This document shows positions 26,242 to 52,315 of a stretch of DNA of 64,000 nt, one piece after another (position 1 is the first letter of the stretch; every line of letters starts with the position of its first letter). Source of the stretch: Verrucomicrobiota bacterium (GTDB taxonomy: Bacteria > Verrucomicrobiota > Verrucomicrobiia > Chthoniobacterales > JACTMZ01); NCBI GenBank assembly GCA_027624625.1, contig JAQBWH010000002.1, positions 24,271 to 88,270 of the forward strand, written 5' to 3'. Below the pieces are notes generated by a model. It was given only the letters and a program-made list of their open reading frames with translations. It was not told the origin of the DNA and ran no database searches. The translations under genes were made by a program, and so were the position numbers.

Positions 26242-26425
26242 CGCGGCGGTTGTCCGGCCGGCGTGAACAGAAGGCAACGAAGAGCGTCCTTTGACTTCCG
26301 CCGGCGAGTTGGTTGGGCCCGGACGGCTCCGGAACGCGGACCAATCGTGACCATTTTTCGCTGGCTGTAGCGCGGTGTCCGGCACTGGTTGGGTAGAGGT
26401 GGCGCCGCCGGTCGCACGCCGAATT

Positions 26426-26442
26426 GTGACAGAAAATTCACA
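26426..26442 (+). promoter_or_regulatory. Candidate Pho box (11-bp direct repeat)
   Basis: GTGACA-gaaaa-TTCACA, 50 nt before the likely start of the phytase-like esterase. Confidence 0.7.
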
Positions 26443-31086: not shown

Positions 31087-31104
31087 CCGCCTCGTGCTGC
31101 TCTT

Positions 31105-31121
31105 GTGACAAAGAATTCACA
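31105..31121 (+). promoter_or_regulatory. Candidate Pho box
   Basis: GTGACA-aagaa-TTCACA, 100 nt upstream of the PEP-CTERM gene. Confidence 0.7.
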
Positions 31122-31220: not shown

Positions 31221-32003
31221 ATGAAAAAACTCCTCACCACCATCGCCCTCGCGGGCGCAATCATCACCGGCGCGCAAGCGCAGGGCATCATCATCTCCGA
31301 AATCAACTCCAACGGCACCGGAGGTGATTTCTTCGAGATCTACAACTACGGCGCGACGGCCGTGGAACTCGGCGGCTGGAAATGGGTCGACAATGCCAGT
31401 GCGGCCAATGGCGGCCCGTCCTTCAATGGCGCCCGCGCCTACGCCTTCGACGCGTTCAGCCTCAATCCCGGGGGCATTGCGCTGGTCCCCACCGATGCCG
31501 GCGGCAACGCGGCGGGCAATACCGCCTTTGCCACCTCCTGGGGACTGATCGGCGCGAATTTCCTTACCTTCAACACCGGCCTCGGCACCGGCAACGGTCT
31601 CGGAAAGAACGATCTTGTCGCTCTCTTCGACAGCGCTGGCGTTTTCCAAACCGGGCTCAACTACGGCACGGCTGCGGTCACCGTCACCAACGGCGATAAC
31701 ACCACTGTCTCGCTCGCTCCTTTCAACCGCGTCGGTGGCGGCACCAGCGCTGGCGGACACGCCGGTGCGGCCGGTGGTGGCGCGGCCGCGCAGTCGCTCA
31801 TCTGGGATCCCGCCTCGCCCGGCAACGCCCCGCTCTACACCGCAGCCTCGAGCGTCGGCCTCTACGGCTCTTTTGAAAATCCCAGCGACGCAGGGACCAT
31901 TGGTTCCCCCAGCGTTGTCCCCGAGCCCAGCACCTATGCCATGCTGGCCCTAGCCGGTATCGGTCTTGCCGCCTACCGCCTGCGCCGCCGCGCGCGCCGT
32001 TGA
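31221..32003 (+). CDS. PEP-CTERM protein with lamin-tail-like domain
   Basis: Signal peptide; IIISEINSN..DFFEIYNYG; VVPEPSTYAMLALAGIGLAAYRLRRR. Confidence 0.9.
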   Translation: MKKLLTTIALAGAIITGAQAQGIIISEINSNGTGGDFFEIYNYGATAVELGGWKWVDNASAANGGPSFNGARAYAFDAFSLNPGGIALVPTDAGGNAAGNTAFATSWGLIGANFLTFNTGLGTGNGLGKNDLVALFDSAGVFQTGLNYGTAAVTVTNGDNTTVSLAPFNRVGGGTSAGGHAGAAGGGAAAQSLIWDPASPGNAPLYTAASSVGLYGSFENPSDAGTIGSPSVVPEPSTYAMLALAGIGLAAYRLRRRARR

Positions 32004-34753: not shown

Positions 34754-35608
34754 ATGCGTCATATCCTCACCTGCACGGACGGATCACCCTACGCCCGCAG
34801 TGTCTATGAACTCACGGCCTGGGCCGCACAGCGGCTCGATGCCGCGGTCCATGTCCTCCACATGCTCGACCCGCACCGCGAGCGAGCCGAGAGTGTCGAC
34901 TTGAGCGGCAACATCGGTGTCGATACCGCTCCGGCCTTGCTCCATGAATTGGTCGACCGCGAGGAAAGGCAAAACCGTCTGGCCCGCGAGCAAGGCAAGC
35001 AGGTCCTCGCCGGAGCCGAGCGGCAACTCACGGCCGCCGGGGTCTCCCGTCTCACCGTCGAGCAAAGGCACGGCGAGCTGGTTGAGACCGTCACGCGGCT
35101 CGAGGAAAAATCCGACCTCCTCATTCTCGGCAAGCGCGGACATGGTGCCGGCCACGCGCCCGGCCGACTCGGTTCGAATCTGGAACGTGTCATCCGCGCC
35201 AGCATCCGCCCGGTTTTCATCGCCGCGCGCGAATTTTCCCAGGTCGAGAGCTTCCTTCTCGCTTACGATGGTGGGCAAAGCATGGACAGGGCCCTCGCTT
35301 TTCTCGCGGCCCAGCCGCTCTTGCGCGGCCTCCATTGTCATCTGCTCCGTGCCGGCAAGATTGATGGCAAGGCCGAGCGTCTGACCTTGGAGGCTGCCGC
35401 CAAACTGCAGTATGCGGGCTACGAGGTGGAGGTCGCACTGGCCGCCGGCGATCCTGAAAAAGCCATCGCCGACCGCGTGGCGCGGCACCGGATCGGTGTC
35501 GTCCTGACGGGTGCCTACGGCCATTCGCGCATCCGGCAGTTGATCGTCGGCAGCACGACCACGGAGATCCTCCGCACCTGCCACGTGCCGGTGCTGATGT
35601 TCCGGTAG
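34754..35608 (+). CDS. Tandem universal stress protein
   Basis: ILTCTDGS, LLILGKRG, GSNLERV, GAYGHS, GSTTTEIL. Confidence 0.9.
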   Translation: MRHILTCTDGSPYARSVYELTAWAAQRLDAAVHVLHMLDPHRERAESVDLSGNIGVDTAPALLHELVDREERQNRLAREQGKQVLAGAERQLTAAGVSRLTVEQRHGELVETVTRLEEKSDLLILGKRGHGAGHAPGRLGSNLERVIRASIRPVFIAAREFSQVESFLLAYDGGQSMDRALAFLAAQPLLRGLHCHLLRAGKIDGKAERLTLEAAAKLQYAGYEVEVALAAGDPEKAIADRVARHRIGVVLTGAYGHSRIRQLIVGSTTTEILRTCHVPVLMFR

Positions 35609-35715
35609 AGCGATTCGCGGCCTTTTGACGCGAAAAGTTGCCGGTGCCACCGTGGCAACCGAGAGGCGGTTTGTTCGCTGCGCCGGCGTGATCACTTTTT
35701 TGGAGGTGTCGTCCC

Positions 35716-35904
35716 ATGACGCCAAAGAAACTCCTCGTAACGAGGCCCCGCAAAAATTACTGCCCGATACGCTCTGGTTCGCGCTATATTCCGGAACGGC
35801 AGGGCCGCGATGGTCTCGTTCCTCCGGCGGGCCCGTGTCTTGGCGAACCGGCGGAGCGCCTCCCGGGGCACGGTGCCCAGCCCGTCTTGCCGGCACAATC
35901 ATGA
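35716..35904 (+). CDS. Possible 62-aa upstream ORF coupled to prfC
   Basis: GGAGGT 8 nt before the ATG; its stop overlaps the prfC ATG (ATGA). No recognisable domain. Confidence 0.3.
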   Translation: MTPKKLLVTRPRKNYCPIRSGSRYIPERQGRDGLVPPAGPCLGEPAERLPGHGAQPVLPAQS

Positions 35905-37520
35905 GCGAGCACAGCGCAAACGAAAAGGCCGTCCGCGAAACCGCGCGGCGGCGCACTTTTGCCATCATTTCGCATCCGGACGCGGGCAAGACGACGCTGA
36001 CCGAAAAATTCCTGCTTTACGGCGGGGCGGTGCAATTGGCCGGCAGTGTGACGGCGCGCCGCAACCAGAGGTCCACGACAAGCGACTGGATGGAACTGGA
36101 AAAGCAGCGCGGTATTTCGGTGTCCTCCACCGTGCTGCAGTTCGACTACGACGGCTACGTGGTCAACCTGCTCGACACCCCGGGCCACCAGGATTTCTCC
36201 GAGGACACCTACCGGGTGCTCACGGCCGTCGATGCCGCGGTCATGGTCATCGATGCGGCCAAAGGCATCGAGCCACAGACCCGCAAGCTTTTCGAAGTCT
36301 GCCGCCGCCGCGGGGTGCCGATTTTCACCTTCATCAACAAGCTCGACCGCCCGGCCCGCGCGCCGCTCGCCTTGCTCGACGAATTGGAGACCGTGCTCGG
36401 CATCCATGCCGCACCATGCAACTGGCCGCTTGGTGATGGCCCGGAATTTCGCGGGGTCTATGACAGAATTTCCGGCGAAGTTCACCTTTTCGAGAAAACC
36501 CCGCAAGGTGCCTTCCGCGCGCCGGAAAAAGTGGCGGGGGCGGACGACGAACTGGTGCGGAAGGTGCTGGCGCCCGATGTGCATGCGCGTTTCCTCGAGG
36601 AGATAGACTTGTTGGACGGCGCCGGGGCGGGCTTTGATCTCGAGGCGCTACGTGCCGGACGGCAGACCGCGGTTTTCTTCGGCAGCGCGATGAACAACTT
36701 CGGGGTGCGTCTTCTCCTCGACCGCTTTCTCGAATTCGCCCCGCCGCCGGCCGGGCGCGTGGCGGCCTGCGGTCCGGTCGACCCGTCGGCCCCTCCCTTT
36801 TCCGGCTTCGTCTTCAAAGTGCAGGCCAACATGAACCCGCGCCATCGCGACCGGGTCGCCTTCGTCCGGATTGTTTCCGGCCGTTTCCGGCGCGACATGA
36901 CGGCGCACAATCCCCGCACCGGGCGCGATCTGCGTTTGTCCAACGCGCAGCGGTTGTTCGCCCGCGAACGCGAGACGGTGGACGACGCATGGCCCGGCGA
37001 CGTGGTGGGTCTGGTTGGAAACTATGACATCCAGATCGGCGATACGCTGAGCGAAGACGCGACGGTTGTCTTCCACGAGATCCCGCGCTTCCCGCCGGAG
37101 TGTTTTGCCTCGGTGCACTGCTCCACTTCGGCCATGCAGAAACGTTTCCGGGCCGGTCTCGACCAACTGCTCAAAGAAGGTGTGGCCCAGCGCTTTCATC
37201 CGGAAGGTGCGGTCACGGCGGCGCCGCTGCTCGGGGCGGTCGGACCTCTGCAATTCGATGTGTTGCGTCACCGGTTGTTGTCCGAATACGGCGCCGAGTG
37301 CCGCCTCGAGACGGCAAGTTGGAACCTGGTCCGCTGGTTGCCGGCCATGACCGCTTTGGAGAATTCGCTCTTGATGCTCCCGACCGGTGTGGTGCGGGCC
37401 AGCGATGAGGACAACCGTACTGTGCTCCTTTTCGACAGTGCATGGGCTTTGCGCTATTTCACGGAGAAACACGCTCACATCACGCTAGCCGAGACTGCAC
37501 CGCAGGGGCCGGGTGGGTGA
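35901..37520 (+). CDS. prfC: Peptide chain release factor 3
   Basis: RRTFAIISHPDAGKTT, SDWMELEKQRGISV, DTPGHQDFSED, NKLD, GAVGPLQF. Confidence 0.96.
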   Translation: MSEHSANEKAVRETARRRTFAIISHPDAGKTTLTEKFLLYGGAVQLAGSVTARRNQRSTTSDWMELEKQRGISVSSTVLQFDYDGYVVNLLDTPGHQDFSEDTYRVLTAVDAAVMVIDAAKGIEPQTRKLFEVCRRRGVPIFTFINKLDRPARAPLALLDELETVLGIHAAPCNWPLGDGPEFRGVYDRISGEVHLFEKTPQGAFRAPEKVAGADDELVRKVLAPDVHARFLEEIDLLDGAGAGFDLEALRAGRQTAVFFGSAMNNFGVRLLLDRFLEFAPPPAGRVAACGPVDPSAPPFSGFVFKVQANMNPRHRDRVAFVRIVSGRFRRDMTAHNPRTGRDLRLSNAQRLFARERETVDDAWPGDVVGLVGNYDIQIGDTLSEDATVVFHEIPRFPPECFASVHCSTSAMQKRFRAGLDQLLKEGVAQRFHPEGAVTAAPLLGAVGPLQFDVLRHRLLSEYGAECRLETASWNLVRWLPAMTALENSLLMLPTGVVRASDEDNRTVLLFDSAWALRYFTEKHAHITLAETAPQGPGG

Positions 37521-37588
37521 CCCGCGGCAGTCGGGACGCAACACCATGGCTGAGGAGACCGGGGCAGGCCAATAAGCCGCGGCTTTTT

Positions 37589-37605
37589 GTGACCAAATCT
37601 TCACA
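37589..37605 (+). promoter_or_regulatory. Candidate Pho box upstream of structured RNA
   Basis: GTGACC-aaatc-TTCACA followed by atttcccctttg, near-identical to the flank at 42650. Confidence 0.65.
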
Positions 37606-37693
37606 ATTTCCCCTTTGGAGAGTTGGCCCCGGTACGCTTTGCTTTCCTCCTATTCCCGCGGGCCTCCTGTCCGCGGAATTTTCCGGGGGGAAA

Positions 37694-37723
37694 AATGAAG
37701 GGTGCCGCAAGGTGCCCTTCATT
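37694..37723. terminator. 13-bp hairpin (leader hairpin on +, or terminator on -)
   Basis: aatgaagggtgcc-GCAA-ggtgcccttcatt. Two G-U pairs favour +; the A-run before it gives a U tract on -. Confidence 0.55.
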
Positions 37724-37902
37724 GCTCCTCCTGCGGAACGCATCAAGGGATGGCTGGTGCCAACCTCCACTTCCTGCTTCGCCGTGACAAGTCCCCGGCC
37801 CTGGCGAGACCGGTTTTACTTCAAAACCAGGGATTTGGCCTCCCGCTGAGCCTGGCGCCGAAGTGCGGCGCAGCAGCTTGATTTCGGCGGAGCGGGAGAA
37901 AT
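37724..37902 (+). ncRNA. 6S-like rod-shaped ncRNA candidate
   Basis: Nested helices gctcc/ggagc, atcaag/cttgat, gctg/cagc, cgcc/ggcg, ggcc/ggcc, ccctgg/ccaggg, apical ggtttt/aaaacc; pyrimidine-rich 5' bubble opposite hairpin gcgccg/cggcgc. Confidence 0.55.
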
Positions 37903-37919
37903 CCCGTCGGTCCCTTTTT

Positions 37920-37936
37920 GTTGCGGCTTTGTCACA
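37920..37936 (+). promoter_or_regulatory. Weak candidate Pho box upstream of ppk2
   Basis: GTTGCG-gcttt-GTCACA; first half degenerate. Confidence 0.4.
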
Positions 37937-37981
37937 TTCCTGTGCTTGGCCTCCGCGTGGCAGACGCGCATTTTGAGGAGG

Positions 37982-38893
37982 ATGCCCGAGCGCACCACCG
38001 ACGACCGACTTTTGGCGGAAACCATCCGCAGCGAGATGCTGGAGGACATCGACGAGGAGCTGGAGTTGGAGATGGAGGAAGTCCGTTCCGAGGGCTCACG
38101 GGAGGGCGGTGACCACTCGCGCCGGTTCCGCCGCCAATACTTCCGCGAATTGTTCCGGCTGCAAACCGAGTTGGTCGCCCTGCAGGACTGGGTGGTCGCG
38201 ACCGGTCAAAAAATCGTCATCCTTTTCGAGGGCCGCGATGCCGCGGGCAAAGGCGGCACGATCAAGCGTTTCACCCAGCGTCTCAACCCGCGGGTTTGCC
38301 GCGTCGCCGCCTTACCCGCACCGAGCAGCCGCGAACGCACCCAATGGTATTTCCAGCGCTACGTGGCCTATCTTCCGGCCGCCGGCGAAATCGTCCTTTT
38401 CGACCGCAGTTGGTACAACCGCGCCGGTGTCGAGCATGTCATGGGTTTCTGCAGCGACGAGGAATACAAAGGTTTTTTTCGCGATGTGCCCGAGTTCGAG
38501 CGCATGCTGGTGCGCTCCGGCATCCGCCTGGTCAAGTATTGGTTCTCCATCACCGACGCCGAGCAAGAACAGCGTTTTCTGGCCCGCATTCACGATCCGC
38601 TCAAGCAGTGGAAGCTCAGTCCGATGGACCTCGAATCGCGGGCGCGCTGGGAGGACTACACCGTGGCCAAGGAGATCATGCTCCAGCGCACCAGCATTCC
38701 CGAGGCTCCGTGGTGGGTGGTCCCGGCGGTGGACAAAAAGAAAGCGCGCCTCAACTGCCTCGACCATCTCATCTCGCTCCTCCCTTACACCGAGACCCCG
38801 CACCAACCGGTTGTTCTGCCCCCTCGCCACCACCATGAGGACTACCACCGGCACCCGGTGCCGGAGGACATGATCGTGCCGCAAAAATACTGA
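37982..38893 (+). CDS. ppk2: Polyphosphate kinase 2
   Basis: FEGRDAAGKGG, WYFQRY, FDRSWYNRAGVE, WKLSPMD. Confidence 0.95.
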   Translation: MPERTTDDRLLAETIRSEMLEDIDEELELEMEEVRSEGSREGGDHSRRFRRQYFRELFRLQTELVALQDWVVATGQKIVILFEGRDAAGKGGTIKRFTQRLNPRVCRVAALPAPSSRERTQWYFQRYVAYLPAAGEIVLFDRSWYNRAGVEHVMGFCSDEEYKGFFRDVPEFERMLVRSGIRLVKYWFSITDAEQEQRFLARIHDPLKQWKLSPMDLESRARWEDYTVAKEIMLQRTSIPEAPWWVVPAVDKKKARLNCLDHLISLLPYTETPHQPVVLPPRHHHEDYHRHPVPEDMIVPQKY

Positions 38894-42359: not shown

Positions 42360-42524
42360 TCAGCGCGAAGCAAGATAAATGGCTAGGGCAAGAAATACGG
42401 CGAAGGCGAGCAGTCCGATGCCGGCCGCCATCCAGCGTCTGCGGGGAAATGGATCGAGGGACGAGCAGGACGGACAATAGCCGCGCACGGCCCCGCGTGA
42501 ACCGCAACGTTGACATCGTGCCAT
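42360..42524 (-). CDS. 54-aa zinc-ribbon plus single-TM protein
   Basis: MARCQRC...CPSC followed by a hydrophobic C-terminal helix. Confidence 0.55.
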   Translation of the reverse strand: MARCQRCGSRGAVRGYCPSCSSLDPFPRRRWMAAGIGLLAFAVFLALAIYLASR

Positions 42525-42570
42525 GGTCAGAGCGGTAACCGCCCACCGTGGCCAAGGCAATCCCGGAAAT

Positions 42571-42587
42571 GTAACAAATAGTTCACT
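42571..42587 (+). promoter_or_regulatory. Candidate Pho box (distal, sigma factor promoter)
   Basis: GTAACA-aatag-TTCACT. Confidence 0.45.
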
Positions 42588-42638
42588 ATCAGCAACTTGA
42601 GATTGCAAACGCAAGGCCGGAAATTGGCCGGCCGGGGT

Positions 42639-42655
42639 GTGGCGAAATTTTCACA
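42639..42655 (+). promoter_or_regulatory. Candidate Pho box (proximal, sigma factor promoter)
   Basis: GTGGCG-aaatt-TTCACA followed by attccccctttg. Confidence 0.55.
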
Positions 42656-42708
42656 ATTCCCCCTTTGCCATCGGGGTGTCCCGGCGGTTCCCCTTGGGTC
42701 TGCCCGCC

Positions 42709-43596
42709 ATGCTCCCCAGCTACTTTCACGAAATCAGCCTCGTTCCGCTTTTGAGCTTGGAGGAAGAAACGGCGTTGGCGGAACGGGTGCAAGCGGGGTG
42801 CGAGGCGGCCCGGCACCGCATGATTGTGGCCAACTTGCGTCTTGTCGTGAAAATCGCCGGTGAATTCGTCCATCGGGGGGTGCCGCTCGACGACCTTATT
42901 TCCGAAGGCAACCTCGGGCTGATCCGGGCGGTGGAAAAATTCCGCCCTCAAAAAGGCGGCAAATTCAGTTCCTATGCCGCGTGGTGGATTCGCCAGGCCA
43001 TCCACCGCGCGCTCGGTGAGCAAAATCATGCCGTCCGGCTGAGCCCGCTCGCCATGAGCAAACTGTCCAAGCTCCGTCGCATCGCGCACAGCATGTCGGA
43101 CGCCCTCGGCCGCGAACCAACCGACGAGGAGTTGTCCGATGAACTCGGACTGGAGGCCGTCACGGTGACCAACCTCAAGAACGTGGCGGCCCGCCCGGCC
43201 TCGATGGACTCTTTGCTTTCCGGAGAGGTCGGGGCCACGCTGGGAAGTCTGCTCGTCGACGAACAAGCCGAGGACCCTCTAGAGGCGCTGAGCGGCAAAG
43301 ATCTGAGGGACAAAGCAGGGGAATTGCTCACCGTGCTGAAAAGCAGGGAGCGGGCGGTGGTCGTCCGCCGTTTCGGTTTGGACGGACACCAACCCATGAC
43401 CCTCGAGCTGATCGGCGCGGAACTCGGCTGCACCCGGGAAAGGGCGAGGCAAATTCTGCAGGACGCCCTCAAGCGGATGCGGCGCACTTTTTCCCGACAC
43501 CAGTCGCGGCAGTTCCTGCAAGTGGTGGCGGCCAACCCTCTCCGGTCACCCGGCGCAGCCACCATCTTGCTTCCTCCCGCCCGCTGTGCGGCCTAG
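42709..43596 (+). CDS. Group 2 (RpoD/RpoS-like) sigma-70 factor lacking region 1.1
   Basis: ANLRLVVKIA, DLISEGNLGLIRAVEKF, KFSSYAAWWIRQAI, TRERARQI. Confidence 0.92.
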   Translation: MLPSYFHEISLVPLLSLEEETALAERVQAGCEAARHRMIVANLRLVVKIAGEFVHRGVPLDDLISEGNLGLIRAVEKFRPQKGGKFSSYAAWWIRQAIHRALGEQNHAVRLSPLAMSKLSKLRRIAHSMSDALGREPTDEELSDELGLEAVTVTNLKNVAARPASMDSLLSGEVGATLGSLLVDEQAEDPLEALSGKDLRDKAGELLTVLKSRERAVVVRRFGLDGHQPMTLELIGAELGCTRERARQILQDALKRMRRTFSRHQSRQFLQVVAANPLRSPGAATILLPPARCAA

Positions 43597-47146: not shown

Positions 47147-47223
47147 GCGTCGTTTGGCGCTCGGTAGCTTCCTCGCAGAGGAAAGGCCTAACAGCGGGAT
47201 CGCCGCCCGGCCAATCAATATCT

Positions 47224-47240
47224 GTGACGAAATTGTTACA
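47224..47240 (+). promoter_or_regulatory. Candidate Pho box
   Basis: GTGACG-aaatt-GTTACA between the divergent response regulator and metallophosphoesterase genes. Confidence 0.65.
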
Positions 47241-48074: not shown

Positions 48075-48533
48075 TCAGCAGCAGCCCGACCCTGGCGTGC
48101 CGCAACCCGCCGCCGCGCCCGGGACCGGGAGGCAAATTTCCTTGGCCAGGCAGTCTGTGTGCTTGGTTCCGAGGTGCAGGACCACGGCGTCACCGGCACT
48201 GACCGAGAGGAGGGGGAACTGCGAGATGATGCCGTCCTCGAACTCGATTTCCACCGGAAGACCAGCCAACCCGAGCGGTTCGAGGGCGCGGCTGATGATG
48301 GCCTTGAGCTTGCCGGCGGACAGACGGTGATCCGTGTCGTCCGCTACCCAGGCCTGCAAGCAGCAGAAGGAAGTGCGGCGCATGGCCCCGCCGCAGTCGA
48401 GAAACTCGCGGTCGATGCGGCCGACCTCGGTGATGTGCGCGTGGTCGGGGATGCGCCCGCCATCGGGCAAAACAAAGGACACGGGTTTTTCGCCGAAAGC
48501 GGCGAGCAGGGCGTTGAGTTCGGCAGTATTCAT
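48075..48533 (-). CDS. DUF6428-like protein of ars clusters
   Basis: HITEVG, FLDCGG, TKHTDCLAKEIC, Cys-rich C-terminus ending GCC. Confidence 0.72.
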   Translation of the reverse strand: MNTAELNALLAAFGEKPVSFVLPDGGRIPDHAHITEVGRIDREFLDCGGAMRRTSFCCLQAWVADDTDHRLSAGKLKAIISRALEPLGLAGLPVEIEFEDGIISQFPLLSVSAGDAVVLHLGTKHTDCLAKEICLPVPGAAAGCGTPGSGCC

Positions 48534-48979
48534 GGAAGAGCAGGTAGGGTTTGGGGCATGGTCAGGAGCCAGCAACGCAACCGTTCACTGATCTCGTCGC
48601 GGACCCGCCGGAAGACGGCAAGTCGGTCCGCTTCGGATCCGGTCGCCGCCGACGGGTCGTCAAAAGGCCAGTGCAGGACCTCGCCGAGGGCCGGGTAAAT
48701 GCGAGGACATTCGTTGCTCGCTCGGGCGCAAACGATGATGGCATACCGCACGGGCACATGACCGAGGATGCCCTCGAGGCCTTTTGAGGTGTGGCCGGAA
48801 AGGTCGATGCCGCACTCCCGCATGGCCTCCACCGCGAGCGGGTGCGGTTGACTTGGTTCGGTTCCCGCGCTGAAGACTTCGAACCGGTCGCCGGCCAGGT
48901 GGCGCAACCAACCCTCCGCCATCTGGCTGCGGGCCGAGTTGTGCGTGCAGAGGAAAAGAACGCAGGGTTTGCGGGTCAT
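48530..48979 (-). CDS. arsC: Arsenate reductase (LMWP fold)
   Basis: [32 protein letters not shown]. Confidence 0.88.
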
Positions 48980-49431
48980 CGGGGTGGTGGCGCGTTGGTT
49001 TTGTCGCGGCGTCCCGCCGCATAGGCTCCGAAAACACGGCGGAGTTCGTCGCGCACACGGCGGAATTGCGCGGCGATTTCTTCCGCGGTGCCGGTGGCGT
49101 GCGCCGGATCATCGAAGGGCCAGTGATGCCGGTTCACCTGGCCGGGAAAAACCGGACAAGCCTGGTCCGCATTCCCGCACACCGTGATGACCGTCTCCAC
49201 TTCACGGTCGAGAAATTCATCCATATGCTTCGAGGTGTGGGCGGAAATATCGATGCCGATTTCGGCGAGGGCCGCGATGGCTTGAGGATGGACATAGCCG
49301 GCCGGGTTGGATCCCGCACTACACACTTCGAGGAGGTCGCCGGCCGTGGCGCGAAGGATGCCCTCGGCCATGTGGCTACGGCAGGAGTTGCCCGTGCAAA
49401 GGATGAGGACACGCGGCTTCTCGGGCATCAT
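48976..49431 (-). CDS. arsC: Arsenate reductase (LMWP fold)
   Basis: [30 protein letters not shown]. Confidence 0.92.
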
Positions 49432-50618
49432 CTTGCTCCCTCCATGGCCTGGCGCACCGCACGGCAGGCCTCGCTTTGCAGGAACAGGCGGTCCGGTCCC
49501 GACAGCTCCTGCTCGCCGAGGCGGTCGGCTTCCGCGATGATTTCACGGGGGAAATATTTGCGCCGGAACCAGAGCGCGACATGGACGAGCCCGATGAGCA
49601 CGGGAACCTCGATCAGCGGCCCGACCACGGTGGCGAAGGCCACCCCGGAGGCGATGCCGAAGACACCGATGGCCACCGCGATGGCCAGTTCAAAATTGTT
49701 ACCTGCCGCGGTGAAGGCAAGGGTTGTGCTGCGCGAATAATCCGCCCCGATCCGGCGACCGAGAAAAAAGCTGAGGCCGAACATGAGAATGAAATAGATG
49801 GTCAGCGGCAGCGCGATACGGAGGACGTCCAGCGGGAGCTTCACGATGGCGCCGCCTTTGAAGGTGAACATCACCACGATGGTGAAAAGCAAGGCGATCA
49901 AAGTAACGGGTGAGATCACCGGGATGAATTTGCGGTCATACCACTCGATGCCTTTGAGCGGAATGAGGATAACGCGACTGAGCACACCCGCCGCGAAAGG
50001 AATTCCGAGGTAAATCATCACACTGGCGAAAATCTGGCCGATGGTCACGTCGGCCAGCGACTTTCCCCCGAGCCCCCGGACCATGGACAAGTCGATCCCG
50101 AGCAGACCGGGCAACCAGGTGATGAAGACCCACGCGTAGAGGCCGAAGGTGACAATCTGGAAGACGCTGTTGAGCGCAACAAGGCCGGCGCAATACTCGC
50201 TGCTCCCCTTGGCCAGCTGGTTCCAGACCAAGACCATGGCAATGCAGCGGGCGATGCCGACCAGGATGAGCCCGACCATGTAGTCCGGATGATCGCGGAG
50301 AAACAGGACGGCGAGGATGAACATGAGCACCGGACCGATGACCCAATTTTGCAGGAGGGACAACCCGAGGACTTGGGGGTTGGAGAAAACTTTGGGCATT
50401 TCCTCGTAGCGCACCTTGGCCAAAGGCGGATACATCATGAGGATGAGACCCGCCGCGATGAGGAGGTTTGTTGTTCCGACCGTGACCGGGGCGAAGAATG
50501 CCTCGGGATTAACAATGAGAAAATTGCCGGCCAGAACGCCGATTCCCATGGCGGCAAAAATCCACAAGGTGAGGTAACGGTCCAGGAAGGACATCCGGCG
50601 TGCGATCGAATCGTTCAT
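49428..50618 (-). CDS. acr3: ACR3 family arsenite efflux pump
   Basis: [53 protein letters not shown]. Confidence 0.95.
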
Positions 50619-52271: not shown

Positions 52272-52288
52272 TGTGAAATTTCCGTCAC
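52272..52288 (-). promoter_or_regulatory. Candidate Pho box
   Basis: Minus strand GTGACG-gaaat-TTCACA, ~50 nt upstream of the TpsB start. Confidence 0.7.
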
Positions 52289-52315
52289 ATAGACCTTTTC
52301 CGACAGAGTAAAGGT

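Follow-up and report, generated by a model that had tools for sequence, protein, structure and literature searches.

6S RNA is a rod of about 185 nt with a central bubble that mimics an open promoter, binds the sigma70-RNA polymerase holoenzyme and templates pRNA. PhoB-dependent promoters, such as those of pstS and phoA in E. coli, contain two 7-bp repeats of the TGTCA type with an A/T-rich spacer, and the E. coli Pho box replaces the -35 element, lying about 10 bp 5' of the -10 element. Stress operons can have promoters in tandem and long, structured 5' leaders, and Pho-regulated small RNAs (sRNAs) have also been described, for example PsiR1 of cyanobacteria. The Correia elements of Neisseria are MITEs that carry promoters.

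A preliminary description of a 64-kb stretch of DNA from a Verrucomicrobiota bacterium, referred to here in its entirety as the window, placed a 6S-like RNA candidate beside a Pho box and ppk2. Genes and spacer run in the order SulP transporter, Usp, prfC, a 461-nt spacer, ppk2, PHO4/Pit phosphate transporter and OprB-family porin, and the candidate fills most of the spacer, which separates the prfC stop at 37520 from the ppk2 ATG at 37982. The assignment of the adjoining gene as ppk2 was borne out by Pfam, PHO4 and OprB domains were found in the genes downstream of it, and every sequence string quoted in the preliminary description is present at the position given there. By its RF3 homologues the window falls within Verrucomicrobiota, near MAGs of Terrimicrobiaceae/Chthoniobacterales. 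The ppk2 gene is identical on five public contigs, including the NCBI MAG GCA_027592505.1, and no tRNAs were found. The features of the locus are as follows:

35925..37520 (start approximate), + strand: prfC, encoding release factor RF3; Pfam GTP_EFTU and RF3_C
37534..37870 (+/- 15 nt), no strand assigned: extra non-coding spacer of about 330 nt, found in this species only
37588-37605, + strand: distal Pho-type box TGTGAC-CAAATC-TTCACA, TGTGACCAAATCTTCACA (proposed promoter P2); 12/12 match to the window-enriched motif
37612-37618, + strand: CCTTTGG element, 6 nt 3' of the distal box; possibly a -10-like element
37656..37676, + strand: leader hairpin 1, a GC stem of 8 bp and then AAUUUU; -15.4 kcal/mol, z -3.98
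37686..37731, + strand: leader hairpin 2, a 13-bp stem with a 6-bp extension and a four-base loop; -33.0 kcal/mol, z -6.75
37695..37787, + strand: 30-codon ORF that starts within hairpin 2; judged non-coding
37722..37896, + strand: rod of the preliminary description; unsupported structure
37886..37919, + strand: terminator-like hairpin (37886-37912) and U5 (37915-37919); -13.5 kcal/mol, z -2.77
37919-37936, + strand: proximal Pho-type box TGTTGC-GGCTTT-GTCACA, TGTTGCGGCTTTGTCACA (promoter P1), ancestral; CTTGG at 37945-37949
37975-37981, + strand: SD sequence GAGGAGG, just 5' of ppk2
37982..38893, + strand: ppk2, heading ppk2-pit(PHO4)-oprB; Pfam PPK2 (PF03976), E 1e-105

The exact box that had been reported at 37589 is real, is placed at 37588-37605 and is one of four exact copies of TGTGAC-N6-TTCACA in the 64 kb. 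With up to two mismatches allowed, the motif gave 13 strand-matches at 8 sites, compared with 2.5 +/- 1.7 in shuffled sequences, and a count of 13 was not attained in any of 100 shuffles. All but one of the boxes in the window are intergenic, every intergenic box lies 5' of a gene in matching orientation, and copies other than the distal box are situated 35-100 nt 5' of a start codon. The sites outside the prfC-ppk2 spacer are:

26425-26442, + strand: box 5' of a phytase-like esterase gene
31104-31121, + strand: box 5' of an LTD and PEP-CTERM protein gene (31221-32003)
42570-42587: further candidate operator site
42638-42655, + strand: box 54 nt 5' of a sigma-70-family gene (42709-43596)
47223-47240, + strand: box 5' of a calcineurin-like phosphoesterase (metallophosphoesterase) gene
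52272-52289, - strand: box 5' of a POTRA protein gene (52223-51243)
56086-56069, - strand: weaker box TGTGACAAATCCGACACC, 63 nt 5' of pstS (ATG 56005)

The gene content of this regulon supports well the label of Pho box given to the site next to ppk2, as the motif also stands 5' of pstS and of several phosphate-scavenging genes of the window. The distal box is identical at 26 of 30 positions to the sequence at 42638-42667, and this 30-nt box match was the only one obtained when the window was compared with the spacer. CCTTTG(G/C) also occurs 3' of the boxes at 26425, 42638, 31104 and 47223 and in the related loci L002, L041 and L079, at a distance of 6-7 nt from the box at most sites and 0-1 nt at two sites, and this recurrence is consistent with a part in the core promoter. 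A "gcggcttt" repeat before both the P1 and P2 boxes is a coincidence, since it is the box's own spacer in P1 and precedes the box in P2. Directly 5' of the distal box lies a 20-nt near-palindrome, CAATAAGCCGCGGCTTTTTG (37570-37589), which is unlikely to be a terminator, given that other strains lack C37580 and are left with too few loop bases.

The boxes mark a phosphate-scavenging island that comprises the phytase-like gene, LTD proteins, ppk2-pit-porin, the metallophosphoesterase, the POTRA protein and pstS/pstC-like genes. The sigma-70-family gene at 42709-43596 (+) is of group-2/3 type, with regions 1.2, 2, 3 and 4, and its position behind a Pho-type box suggests a phosphate-starvation sigma factor. 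A 54-aa protein encoded at 42363-42524 (-) contains a pair of CxxC motifs, ends in a hydrophobic helix (MARCQRCGSRG...CxxC...PFPRRRW...) and has no Pfam match; it is conserved in the distant relative L098 (about 1106-1270, -), where it lies directly 5' of ppk2, and in L098 as in the window it is encoded divergently from Pho-type boxes. The region 48075-50618 (-) encodes an ACR3-type (SBF family) transporter, a DUF6428 protein and small ORFs, and resembles an arsenic-resistance cluster within the phosphate island.

The motif recurs beyond the window at the verrucomicrobial ppk2 loci L002, L019, L041, L079 and L087-89, standing directly 5' of ppk2 in L019 and L087-89, and gave one match in 614 kb of mostly proteobacterial loci. 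An OmpR-family regulator gene adjoins ppk2 in L087 and L089. The boxes allow two readings, one as direct repeats of TGTSAC at a period of 11 bp and the other as the dyad TGTGAC-N6-GTCACA, which is a perfect inverted repeat and the best-conserved form of the motif (L041, L079 and L002); conservation of the terminal A makes the dyad a better fit than head-to-tail repeats. The proximal P1 box is the best-conserved block of the prfC-ppk2 spacer in L083-86, L095 and L098. The motif is bipartite and recurrent, lies 5' of phosphate-acquisition genes that include pstS and is kept at orthologous and related loci of the clade, as is characteristic of Pho-regulon promoters. TGTGAC-N6-(G/T)TCACA, usually followed by CCTTTGG, is a candidate operator of the clade, and no published description of a verrucomicrobial Pho box or of this motif was found in the literature.

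The spacer was compared with those of related loci. L083, L084/85, L086 and L095 share the prfC-ppk2-pit-oprB order and have ppk2 genes of 90-96% nucleotide identity, with a spacer of 137-154 nt in which nothing but the terminator-like hairpin and the proximal box of ppk2 is retained. Homology to these relatives extends to about 37533 and resumes at about 37861-37880, so that about 330 nt (37534-37870) have no counterpart in them. The segment is carried only by L090-L094, which are at least 99% identical to the window and vary at 37567, 37580, 37629, 37751, 37789 and 37814; because it is confined to one species at this level of identity, conservation and covariation are silent on its function. 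The segment is non-coding, with a codon-position GC of 0.54-0.63 across the six frames versus 0.66/0.45/0.79 in neighbouring genes, and its overall GC content is that of the genome on average. In five independent assemblies the extra spacer, the 30-codon ORF included, has no called gene, and no Pfam match was obtained for the spacer-overlapping ORFs other than that one. A tblastx comparison of the spacer with every locus and with the remainder of the window returned nothing significant. The best match in a ppk2 search of GTDB representatives had 74% identity, and the matches were mostly from Burkholderiales, none of them with the spacer; more distant ppk2 loci have other neighbours and no similarity to the segment. 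Among prfC relatives, gene order is lost beyond the genus, with rpsO downstream in one and, in another, a 2-kb uncalled gap showing no similarity.

On ppk2 identities, the window is sister to L083/L084 and L086 and L095 lie outside, which on its face suggests that the segment was gained in the window's lineage. The flanks give a more complex picture. Over 35600-35900 and 36300-37100, L086 and the window are 100% identical, after which identity falls to 94, 91, 84 and then 69% by 37400-37500. Identity to L083 drops as well in this 3' stretch of prfC, about 94% giving way to 71%. Identity to L083 and L086 is back above 90% only from about 38000, reaching the 90-96% of ppk2. The last ~300-400 nt of prfC belong to a divergent haplotype, and the mosaic identity of L086 marks a recombination breakpoint inside prfC. 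The ppk2 5'-UTR (37958-37984 with the start codon) differs as well: the window has a strong SD, GAGGAGG, and L083-86 and L095 have ...CCTGTCACCC-ATG with no SD, next to coding sequences that are about 95% identical. Since the 3' end of prfC and the ppk2 5'-UTR are both divergent, the long spacer is part of a divergent haplotype that begins within prfC and reaches as far as the start of ppk2, and this haplotype, judging from the identity profiles, is moved about by recombination. A recent in-situ insertion, as parsimony would have it, is accordingly the less apt description in view of these divergent flanks and the mosaic L086.

Two leader hairpins in the 5' part of the segment, seen already in the preliminary description, are real and far more stable than expected by chance (z -4.0 and -6.8), and owing to them the region 37630-37912 as a whole has a z of -3.1. 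Hairpin 2 buries GGGGGG-AAAAA-AUG and is the fifth distinct hairpin locus by energy among 25,580 50-nt windows on both strands. Its energy is -33.0 kcal/mol on the + strand versus -25.9 on the - strand, where it is followed by U5 and is terminator-like. The choice of the + strand in the preliminary description is mildly supported, because hairpin 2 is stronger on that strand and the extended motif of the box points rightward. A small hairpin that it had also drawn, gcgccg/cggcgc, does exist at 37855-37871 but is unremarkable (z -1.66). At the 3' end of the spacer, the terminator-like hairpin has CC between its stem and U5 and abuts the P1 box. Relatives carry a positionally equivalent hairpin and T-rich tract, and the element at 37886-37919 is probably the ancestral prfC terminator. 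A strict terminator scan of 37300-38200 returned zero sites, the hairpin itself being uncalled, and a sigma-70 promoter scan of the same interval also returned zero sites, with no recognisable -10/-35 pair. When the full transcript is folded, its minimum free energy (MFE) structure pairs the 5' arm of the hairpin with 37771-37784 instead, suggesting that read-through into ppk2-pit-oprB is at least as plausible as termination.

The best explanation, which is put forward tentatively, is that the segment is a divergent spacer allele with a second Pho-type promoter, P2, acting in cis, plus a leader. The proposed P2 (37588-37605 and CCTTTGG at 37612-37618) would sit 330 nt 5' of the ancestral P1 (37919-37936). 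A Pho regulator would activate P2 under phosphate starvation, and transcription would start near 37625-37635 on the + strand. The resulting RNA is predicted to form the two strong 5' hairpins and may either stop at the old, probable prfC terminator or run into ppk2-pit-oprB as a long leader. P2 has all the marks of the functional-looking sites, namely a 12/12 box, CCTTTGG and a rightward orientation, and would therefore be expected to be active when phosphate is limiting. What this reading draws on was observed directly: the box, the hairpins, the restriction to one lineage and the lack of a coding signal. A second promoter is further favoured by the enrichment of the motif, its exact copies and the gene-facing orientation of the other copies, by its occurrence at other verrucomicrobial ppk2 loci and the retention of the P1 box in all relatives, and by the significance of the hairpins (z -3.1 over 37630-37912) in a region with no coding signature. 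However, P1 alone is evidently enough in the sister lineages, no recognisable sigma-70 -10/-35 pair accompanies the distal box, and neutral DNA could have carried the box along as a passenger.

This last point leads to a somewhat unlikely reading, in which the segment is inert spacer DNA, either a divergent haplotype or a copy from another Pho-regulated locus, that was fixed neutrally with the box and hairpins as passengers, left over perhaps from the promoter and terminators of some other gene. Its restriction to one species, the mosaic flanks (L086 at 100% to about 37100, then 69%), the replacement of the ppk2 5'-UTR and a GC content equal to the genome average are all consistent with inert DNA, as is the U5 that follows hairpin 2 on the - strand, like a terminator from another context. 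A decayed passenger would be expected to drift, however, whereas the distal box is a 12/12 match, is followed by CCTTTGG and is correctly oriented.

A trans-acting, Pho-induced sRNA of about 285-295 nt, running from P2 (about 37625-37635) to 37886-37919 and recent in this lineage, is unlikely. The complete promoter-like box, the strongly structured 5' part, the hairpin and U5 positioned exactly before P1 and the non-coding nature of the segment are what such a gene would show. Against this, the segment is absent from the closest relatives, the putative terminator is weak, uncalled by the scan and has its 5' arm sequestered by 37771-37784, favouring read-through, and neither a target nor a seed region suggests itself. 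If the ~290-nt sRNA were real, the birth of an sRNA gene would have been caught between sister lineages that still have the empty site, the gene having been created when the allele set a complete Pho-type promoter before the old prfC terminator.

The ~330-nt presence/absence polymorphism in an intergenic spacer also raises the possibility of a MITE-like non-autonomous mobile element that carried in a promoter, and a weak 10-nt inverted repeat, GGCAGGCCAA/TTGGCCTCCC, is present at 37563 and 37835. This origin is very unlikely: the inverted repeat is at chance level, with no terminal inverted repeats or target-site duplication evident, and no second copy of the segment was found in the 64-kb window, 99 fetched related loci, a JGI metagenome scan, or plasmid or phage collections. 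Searching the metagenomes with the hairpin-2 pattern produced 84 matches, each confined to the hairpin (<=26 nt), and these are therefore GC-rich hairpins arising by chance. Divergence extends into the flanking coding sequence, which is a better fit to recombination.

A gene for a 30-aa protein at 37695-37787, with GGGGGG as SD and driven by P2, is highly improbable. The distance of 89 nt from box to ATG and the G-rich SD give it a geometry like that of other box-gene pairs, but its GC3 is 0.55 versus 0.78-0.80 in neighbouring genes (about 0.79 in real genes), and its SD and AUG are buried in the -33 kcal/mol hairpin. Furthermore, the only strain variant within the ORF, 37751 T>C, is a non-synonymous change of Trp to Arg, and the ORF is uncalled in every assembly.

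The preliminary description had folded about 180 nt of the spacer by hand into a single irregular rod, from which the 6S-like identity was proposed. To evaluate this structure, the interval 37722-37896 (about 175 nt) was folded and compared with dinucleotide shuffles. Its MFE of -71.9 kcal/mol is no more stable than that of the shuffles (-68.3 +/- 4.3 kcal/mol; z -0.84), 36 of 200 of which were as stable, and the MFE fold is a multibranch structure; over 37700-37915, z is -1.04 for the + strand and, for the - strand, -0.33. The best fold forced to hold the proposed helices reaches -58.6 kcal/mol, which is 13 above the MFE and worse than the mean shuffle. In the Boltzmann ensemble, the pair probabilities of gctcc/ggagc and atcaag/cttgat are 0.000 and that of ccct/aggg is 0.007, leaving the apical ggtttt/aaaacc hairpin as the only favoured helix of the rod (p 0.86-0.99). 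C37827-C37828 are used twice in the hand fold, in aaaaCC and in CCaggg. The arms of the rod also differ in origin: the 3' arm (cttgat at 37877-82 and ggagc at 37889-93) is in ancestral spacer common to the relatives, whereas the 5' arm (37724-37747) is inside the extra segment and absent from the nearest relatives. Strands with such different histories, the 5' strand being dispensable in sister lineages, do not make up a conserved RNA.

Covariance models gave no support either. No Rfam family, RF00013 included, was matched at its gathering score across the 64 kb; a search at E<=0.5 over the window did not match 6S and added nothing, and one at E<=10 over 37400-38100 yielded scattered noise with no 6S model. 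The noise matches (int-alpA, mir-761, Termite-flg and ROSE_3) were far below thresholds. A 6S RNA that sequesters the sigma-70 RNA polymerase holoenzyme, favoured only by a length of about 180 nt and a hand-drawn rod with a bubble, has a negligible likelihood, as a covariance-model match, a dominant rod fold and conservation each failed to appear, with the segment missing at the locus in sister genomes and the two arms being of different evolutionary origin. The literature search returned nothing specific on verrucomicrobial 6S RNA.

A 6S identity would have mattered, and what remains is of modest value. The lineage-restricted spacer allele is a fresh instance of familiar, ordinary regulatory variation, and offers a clean presence/absence case of an extra, putatively stress-responsive promoter before a polyphosphate and phosphate-uptake operon. 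The candidate Pho operator, together with the phosphate-scavenging island, may prove more useful than the original RNA candidate: the sites help to define a Pho-regulon operator for Chthoniobacterales-like Verrucomicrobiota, and the motif could assist the annotation of regulons for phosphate starvation in this group, most of which is uncultured.

Among the known systems, 6S RNA resembles the candidate in length (about 180 nt) and in its location within an intergenic spacer, but the candidate is not matched by any covariance model, lacks a favoured rod or central bubble and is not conserved in sister genomes, and it lies under a stress-specific box as opposed to housekeeping control. Correia elements are likewise short intergenic presence/absence segments with promoter and hairpin elements, although terminal inverted repeats, target duplication and further copies were not detected here. 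Like the PhoB promoters, the window sites are 18-bp bipartite boxes of the TGTGAC/TGTCAC type with an A/T-rich centre and an 11-12-bp periodicity, and they lie 5' of a putative promoter element and 35-100 nt from the starts of pstS, phosphatase, phytase, ppk2 and pit genes. Unlike the head-to-tail sites of PhoB, however, the motif in its best-conserved form is a perfect inverted repeat, the conserved final A is a better fit to a dyad, its downstream element is CCTTTGG and not TATAAT, and its regulator is putative. In comparison with the leaders of stress operons and with PsiR1, the candidate is known from sequence and confined to one species, but it shares with them a Pho-type box placed, as predicted, to drive a non-coding RNA beside Pho-regulon genes. 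As in Pho-regulon promoter regions, the prfC-ppk2 spacer contains Pho-type boxes in tandem.
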